Part shown: one piece after another, positions 27,252-27,547 of the stretch
Numbering within the stretch: the stretch's first letter is position 1
How the letters are laid out: every line of letters starts with the position of its first letter
Assembly (NCBI RefSeq): GCF_018977255.1
Contig: NW_024704933.1
Span: 1-64,000 of the forward strand
DNA length: 64,000 nucleotides
Source of the DNA: Callorhinchus milii
Taxonomy: Eukaryota
Direction of reading: 5' to 3'
Program-made: the position numbers and the translations under genes
The notes under the pieces: model-generated
The model's input: the letters and a program-made list of their open reading frames with translations, nothing else
Database searches by the model: none
What the model was told of the DNA's origin: nothing

Positions 27252-27547
27252 GCTCGCGCGAGGCCGCCTTCGTCTCCGCCATAACCGCCGCCGGAGTTGT
27301 CCACGCGGTGGCGCGCGCCTGTGGCCAGGGGGCGCTGCGGGACATCTGCCCCTTGGCGATTCCTCAAACCATGAGGCTGCTGTACAACACCCTGGGCTAT
27401 GGAGACGCCCTCGTATACGGATACCAATTTGCCAAGCGGTTCGTGGATGCGAGCGAACACGATCGCAGGAGGCTTGGAGGAGGAGGATGGCAGTCTTTGG
27501 CGAAACTCGTCCAGATGAATTTGCACAATAACGAGGCCGGCCGGCTG
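27252..27547 (+). CDS. wnt5-like: Wnt5-like exon 3
   Basis: GSREAAFVSAITAAGVVHAVARAC...YGYQFAKRFVDA...MNLHNNEAGR; gtgagt donor. Confidence 0.93.

Follow-up and report, generated by a model that had tools for sequence, protein, structure and literature searches.

A lamprey-like Wnt5 gene filed under Callorhinchus milii lacks the lipid-site serine and has lost hairpin cysteines as disulfide partners

Lipidation is treated as near-universal among Wnts. In the available sections of PMC10112924, the palmitoleate is carried by a hairpin-2 serine, S209 in WNT3A, and links Wnts to Porcupine, Wntless and Frizzled; all three hairpins contact Wntless and Frizzled. The literature consulted names one gene-level exception, Drosophila WntD, which has no acylated serine, is secreted independently of Wntless and acts non-canonically. 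According to the parts of the literature at hand, unacylated DWnt-5, which binds RYK-type receptors, possibly via its linker (bioRxiv 2021.04.29.442059), and Wntless-independent Wnt11, which binds FZD6, demonstrate that secretion and receptor binding are both possible for an unlipidated Wnt. The family count of conserved cysteines is given as 23-24 (PMC13254330, in part). In lampreys, a germline expansion of WNT5 is already known (PMC10972751, PMC9090840, PMC12184396, PMC10166183, all in their available portions), and ADGRL is another listed germline family, with eight rows in the germline table. The sea lamprey germline genes have been described in print as ordinary WNT5A/5B, with speculation that their roles resemble those of WNT4, and the portions of these accounts at hand make no mention of loss of the lipid site or of cysteines.

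The window, by which we mean the whole stretch of 64,000 nucleotides analysed here, holds an intact six-exon Wnt5 gene on the + strand, with an open frame of 384 residues and GT-AG borders at every intron, as well as exons of an ADGRL-like gene:

23794..23885, + strand: exon 1, with the start codon, a hydrophobic, signal-peptide-like N-terminus and two leader cysteines; GT donor, frame joins exon 2
25425..25663, + strand: exon 2, cysteines c1-c4 kept, N-glycosylation sequon at residue 94 (Pfam wnt, E 2.5e-14)
27252..27547, + strand: exon 3, helical core and hairpin 1 (Pfam wnt, E 4.7e-16)
27320..27400, + strand: remodelled hairpin 1, c5 and c6 kept, c7 replaced by Leu and c8 by Tyr, both Trp of WxWGGC gone
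35553..35669, + strand: exon 4, hairpin 2 with four of four cysteines kept (Pfam wnt, E 3.5e-05); 97% identical to L. reissneri P0138
35598..35600, + strand: lipid-site codon, TTT for Phe at the equivalent of Wnt3a S209, the palmitoleoylated serine
35887..36199, + strand: exon 5, Gly-rich linker and start of the C-terminal domain, five cysteines kept, sequon at residue 329 (Pfam wnt, E 1.4e-17)
36505..36602, + strand: exon 6, hairpin 3 and the stop codon, tip CC changed to Arg-Trp at 36543-36548; 100% identical to P0138
48840..58671, + strand: exons of an ADGRL (latrophilin)-like gene, 84-98% identical to L. reissneri ADGRL3-like sequences on scaffolds of 56-60 kb

Of five exons scanned, four exceed the Pfam wnt cut-off; the last exon (31 residues) scores E 0.41. 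Exon 1 matches residues 1-29 of P0011, and its leader has a hydropathy peak of 2.0 and a predicted helix, a description drawn from hydropathy and the structure model only. The 63-residue N-terminal extension of P0001 in RefSeq is likely spurious: its first piece (20806-20868) recurs in LTR copies at 1031, 7597 and 14255, and its pLDDT is near 30. The best PDB match is to the WNT5A/WNT5B group (PF00110; 9z67, 9z4h; E 7e-80 for the protein, and E 2e-17 to Wnt-5a 9z67 for exon 3), with Wnt5-type motifs throughout, 20 of the 24 cysteines and a tree position inside Wnt5. The predicted structure is a Wnt fold (pLDDT 76, pTM 0.72, from an alignment made up mostly of ordinary Wnts) with the helical core and both long beta-hairpins; the hairpin-1 loop falls below pLDDT 50 at P0001 residues 209-211 and 217-220, and Foldseek aligns the model with Wnt7a and Wnt3 (E 1e-20). 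The protein is set apart from vertebrate WNT5A/WNT5B by an identity of about 42-46%, by a Gly-rich linker insertion, and by the absence of the lipid serine, the WxWGGC of hairpin 1 and the WCC of hairpin 3. Profile match and fold alike place it in the Wnt family (PF00110), and its ancestry and structure are those of a Wnt5, but two defining features of canonical Wnts are missing: its mature part has 20 cysteines instead of 23-24, and a Phe codon occupies the site of the palmitoleoylated hairpin-2 serine.

The window also carries many mobile elements. Positions 1-21100 hold approximately three head-to-tail retrotransposons of the Ty3/gypsy type with shared LTRs (period ~6.6 kb, mostly 95-100% alike), and a young LTR retrotransposon with LTRs 98% identical lies at 39917-46428, its protease-RT-RNaseH-integrase region a single open frame of 1799 residues on the - strand (ORF 40580-45979). 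Inside intron 3, on the strand of the Wnt gene itself, lies an open non-LTR retrotransposon frame of 987 residues with an RT domain (29923-32886). Tandem arrays occur at 33709-34129, 57463-57783 and 62480-62686, with units of 84 bp (5 copies) or ~63 bp, the latter related to a dispersed repeat in Wnt intron 2. An Rfam scan of the window gave no matches; ARAGORN called a tRNA-His with an unusual ATG anticodon at 49772-49843, probably a false, repeat-derived call.

The 384-residue protein has 22 cysteines, two of them in the leader, and compared with the 24 cysteine columns of ordinary Wnt5 it lacks c7, c8, c20 and c21. In hairpin 1, the codons at 27320-27322 and 27347-27349 encode Cys, with Leu (27353-27355) at the second cysteine of the Wnt5 CxC and Tyr (27398-27400) at the WGGC cysteine position, which confirms the observation, made earlier from the sequence alone, that one cysteine of each motif is gone. 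Pairwise alignment by itself leaves the identity of the surviving CxC cysteine ambiguous. The comparison with L. reissneri P0002 is needed here: because P0002 keeps all 24 cysteines at the same CxC spacing, longer by one residue, the survivor must be the first, the partner of the RAC cysteine. We take this c5-c6 pair to be the Wnt3a pair 128-136, itself absent from Table S6 of PMC13254330. The lost residues c7/c8 and c20/c21 are the equivalents of Wnt3a C138/C155 and C334/C335, and 138-155 and 334-335 both appear as Wnt3a disulfides (PDB 7DRT) in Table S6 of PMC13254330, the part of that paper used here; the earlier note was right that the hairpin-1 cysteines are mutual partners and that the tip CC forms a pair. 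At the tip, the Arg and Trp codons (CGC and TGG) are each one base away from Cys, and the length is unchanged. Random loss of four of the 24 cysteines would give two complete pairs with a chance of 0.0062, or 0.048 if the adjacent CC is counted as one event.

The same pattern recurs across the lamprey family. Thirty-six of the 63 derived sequences passed our filter for the motifs of exons 2-6, and among the resulting 432 pair slots (with a shift of 1-2 columns allowed in assigning c6, c7 and c15) 345 pairs are kept, 82 have lost both sides (3 of them in models cut at the 5' end) and five are orphaned. The losses reduce to four events in four distinct pairs: two on the stem of the 20-cysteine group (c7/c8 and c20/c21), one in an L. 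reissneri subclade (c3/c4, Wnt3a 77-88) and one in a sea lamprey subclade (c14/c15, Wnt3a 297-307). Of the 9 sites (in 392) at which P. marinus P0003 departs from P0117, two are the partner cysteines c14/c15. Under random loss, four paired events have a joint chance of 1.7e-5, or 1.3e-4 when the vicinal pair is omitted. Orphan cysteines, which the earlier note had named as contrary evidence, do occur in part: five of the 432 pairs, all in the P0137 group, keep c2 with c1 gone, through deletion or annotation, and four of the 36 sequences carry one extra cysteine. P0002, P0112 and P0113, on an early branch of the clade, have 24 cysteines, have lost both hairpin-1 Trp and carry Thr at the lipid site, possibly an intermediate state.

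Two doubts concern the DNA itself, namely its accuracy and its label. Compensating frameshifts in exon 3, introduced by sequencing or assembly in a region that is repeat-rich and gapped, could be imagined to mimic the loss of hairpin 1. This hardly credible explanation is already refuted by contigs from public runs and by the family audit: runs X1 and X2 both have contigs that carry the segment 27292-27640, with 0 other letters and 2 gaps in X1 and 4 other letters and 3 gaps in X2 (the sole gap listed in the span is intronic), and the same pair is absent from 33 of the 36 audited sequences in two lamprey genera. A hidden frameshift in exon 3 was also rejected on the grounds that the other two frames lack WxWGGC; the exon-2 difference listed between the window and the run contigs, at 25581, is synonymous. 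As for the label, an identical protein, XP_042201913.1, is filed in RefSeq under Callorhinchus milii on a contig of 101.5 kb, which could mean a genuine elephant shark paralogue or a gene passed from lamprey to shark. We regard either as very improbable. Every close relative of the protein comes from a lamprey: L. reissneri P0138 is identical at 171 of 178 columns of exons 4-6, and in a 41-row tree the two are sisters (100/99) within an 18-row clade (100/100) that otherwise consists of lamprey rows and one 'C. milii' row, P0236. A separate 18-row tree without P0138 gives the same placement, and a topology that puts the protein with the Wnt5 of jawed vertebrates is rejected by the AU test (p 1.7e-5). 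P0236 is XP_042201962.1, a second Wnt5 labelled Callorhinchus milii, and it sits beside L. reissneri P0137 with branch length 0. The search with exon 4 among 1.84 billion representatives gave 21 matches, only P0138 exceeding 70% identity. The adjacent gene points the same way: an ADGRL exon shares 97% identity with L. reissneri small-scaffold copies and 85-87% with chromosomal lamprey copies, and no jawed vertebrate exceeds 83% among the 120 of 4718 matches listed.

Judged by these sequence comparisons, the DNA of the window is that of a lamprey, Lethenteron-like, and lamprey-like DNA turns up on more than one contig labelled as shark. A literature search on contamination found nothing relevant. 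Two RefSeq 'elephant shark' Wnt5 proteins look lamprey and could mislead Wnt phylogenies. XP_042201962.1 differs from L. reissneri P0137 at 6 of 267 sites. Compared with L. reissneri P0265, the olfactomedin exon of the ADGRL gene switches reading frame between positions 55917 and 55974, and this copy may be broken or mis-assembled. Small scaffolds of L. reissneri themselves carry chimeric models (P0019, P0266 and the P0138 cluster), in which a derived Wnt5 is joined to a FOXO-like tail, ADGRL to an ephrin-receptor domain, or foreign 5' exons precede Wnt5 exons 4-6.

Among ordinary genes, the closest to the clade is a single chromosomal Wnt5 paralogue of lampreys, P0140/P0248/P0252 (100/97). 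The Gly-rich linker is common to this gene and the clade, and model P0141 runs on through an intron whose position matches that of intron 4 in the window gene, from which we infer a duplication at the DNA level. Three sea lamprey members, XP_032800292, XP_032800882 and XP_032801421, are germline-specific, with log2 sperm/blood ratios of 8.66, 8.98 and 2.22 (Table S3 of PMC10166183, the part used here); of the six proteins looked up in that table, all three clade members are present and none of the three ordinary sea lamprey Wnt5 paralogues. By coordinates these are LOC116937338, LOC116937873 and LOC116938414, which in the available supplements of PMC9090840 are testis-biased and strongly male-biased, and which are enriched in germ cells in the accessible part of a 2026 preprint. 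They belong to the same clade as the window protein (61-70% identity), lack the two pairs that it lacks and, like it, have Phe in place of the lipid serine, although the window copy falls in a separate Lethenteron subclade. Germline restriction of the window copy is therefore likely by extension from its sea lamprey relatives. Five of 24 public runs carry the stretch, no RNA run being listed among the five; runs X6 and X7, from the same sample as X2, contain none of its words and are uninformative on germline restriction. In the portions at hand, the dN/dS table of PMC10166183 does not list WNT5, and the germ-cell preprint does not contain the words 'palmit' or 'cysteine'. No paper noting the lipid-site loss or the cysteine loss in lamprey WNT5, and none on a non-lipidated vertebrate Wnt5, was found in a search that reached a minority of subscription papers and preprint supplements; both losses may be new relative to the known expansion.

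Alignment with the Wnt5a and Wnt3a structures places Phe at the S209 equivalent. In a census of 82 rows, Ser occupies this site in 19 of 19 ordinary Wnt5s; six rows do not cover it, and the 57 derived motifs have Phe (39), Thr (14) or His (4) and never Ser. The residue varies by subclade with no common replacement, and variability peaks in hairpins 1 and 2, at 3.6 and 3.2 states per column versus 2.0-2.7 elsewhere. With Thr, acylation might still occur; the literature search found no paper on acylation of Wnt3a S209T. All three hairpins that contact Wntless and Frizzled are remodelled in the window protein, and the sequence determinants of the grip on the Frizzled CRD, the lipid serine and the hairpin-3 tip, are absent.

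The earlier note had read paired loss as a sign of selection on a folded secreted protein rather than decay. In neutral simulations to 70% identity (2000 runs) the frame stayed open in 0.2% and all 20 cysteines survived in none, and in five pairwise tests the cysteines lost numbered 1 (a column shift), 0, 0, 3 and 0 against a neutral expectation of 6-8; because of these results we consider frame and thiols to be under selection. A disulfide-bonded product, with 20 cysteines and a frame kept far above the neutral level, is thus supported, but what the pairs reveal is selection on thiols and fold, not on signalling. Random disablement in relatives, which the note had named as contrary evidence, is partly present: many models are truncated, including all 11 L. 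reissneri models nearest the window copy, which lack exons 1-3 and the leader, and the three sea lamprey models linked to expression data, which are cut at the 3' end; non-cysteine sites, moreover, show weak or no constraint, as those invariant in ordinary Wnt5 fare no better within the clade than variable ones (p 0.2-0.9). With cysteines left out, such invariant sites are 72% identical versus 68% for variable ones (p 0.46; clade-wide p 0.21), whereas in ordinary Wnt5s the figures are 154/159 versus 83/193. Substitutions are mildly more conservative than neutral, with 3, 36, 21, 327 and 49 of 600 simulations as extreme in the five tests; gene conversion between copies and positive selection could blur all such comparisons.

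On balance we lean towards regarding the window product as a secreted, non-lipidated, WntD-like derivative of Wnt5 without the canonical Wntless/Frizzled grip. A DNA-level duplicate of the ordinary paralogue P0140/P0248/P0252 would have reached germline-restricted chromosomes and expanded there. Its product would enter the ER via the leader and fold on 10 disulfides; since Phe has no hydroxyl, Porcupine could not palmitoleoylate it, and it would therefore exit without Wntless, as WntD does. Loss of the lipid-dependent grip would leave hairpins 1 and 3 free to shed their residues that contact Wntless and Frizzled, and whenever one cysteine of a pair was lost, selection against the free thiol would remove its partner. 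The most likely role in the gonad would be that of a soluble modulator acting via a lipid-independent partner of the RYK/ROR type, or of a decoy, rather than of a canonical Frizzled agonist. The stretch equivalent to the RYK-binding candidate in the DWnt-5 linker is kept in the window protein, but it is conserved across Wnts and hence lends weak support to binding of the RYK type.

Two other histories of the gene deserve to be weighed against this proposal. The family may be a relaxed one, subject to birth and death, whose copies drift on non-recombining germline chromosomes without a signalling role, with residual selection only against free thiols or misfolding in the cells that transcribe them. 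The near-neutral behaviour of non-cysteine sites, the numerous truncated or chimeric models, the orphaned c2 of five sequences and the extra cysteine of four would all suit it, as would the zero depth over exon 2 and 27356-27431 in RNA runs X8 and X11 (no tissue label; 12% and 24% of the reads used); it must also be remembered that protein databases contain open frames only and are biased towards intact copies. We nonetheless think it unlikely, as frames remain open in at least six lineages that are 30-45% apart, each with a neutral survival of 0.2-2%, the clade has kept its new hairpin-3 sequence well (2.0 states per column), counts for the sea lamprey members run into the thousands in prospective-male gonads, and a harmful protein would be more simply abolished by a stop codon than by paired loss of cysteines. 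Less probable by a clear step is a protein that is still a Frizzled ligand, in which the hairpin-2 Phe and its hydrophobic neighbours replace the lipid, Leu/Trp of hairpin 3 replace WCC, and positive selection has fitted the whole to a germline partner. Both hairpins are predicted to be intact beta-hairpins, and the tip residues are hydrophobic in the window copy and in sea lamprey; in the accessible literature unlipidated Wnt11 binds FZD6, WntD works through Fz4, and rates are raised in the germline rspo3 and wnt7 clades (PMC10166183). Yet a rebuilt contact is hard to reconcile with a hairpin-2 tip that is Phe, His or Thr by subclade, or with the loss of WCC from hairpin 3, which the available part of PMC10112924 describes as crucial for binding the Frizzled CRD.

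If the window protein is functional, it would work like WntD by convergence. The two are alike in having no acylatable serine, but WntD is of another lineage, hence convergence, and it is the weakest of the 10 PDB Wnt matches (E 8e-10); orthology with it was rejected, the nearest kin being lamprey Wnt5. WntD is described as unglycosylated, whereas the window protein has two sequons, and WntD's behaviour is established by assay, that of the window protein predicted from sequence. DWnt-5 and Wnt11 differ in another respect: they keep the serine and all hairpin cysteines, while in the window gene the loss is genetically fixed.

A multi-copy vertebrate family without the serine is a natural experiment on which hairpins and disulfides a Wnt needs without its lipid, all the more as the family offers graded forms, with 24, 20 or 18 cysteines and with Thr, His or Phe in place of the lipid-bearing serine. 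The germline WNT5 genes already published for lampreys, discussed as ordinary ones in sex differentiation, need rereading in view of the apparent absence of the canonical receptor grip. We tentatively suggest, as a broader possibility held with less assurance than our reading of the window product, that lampreys evolved on chromosomes confined to germ cells a family of Wnt5 ligands that their genes leave without a lipid. These ligands, which would be WntD's first counterpart in a vertebrate, may have shed pairwise the disulfides of the hairpins that contact Wntless and Frizzled, may spread freely within the gonad and may act in germ-cell fate or sex differentiation, either by way of a partner other than Frizzled or as decoys.
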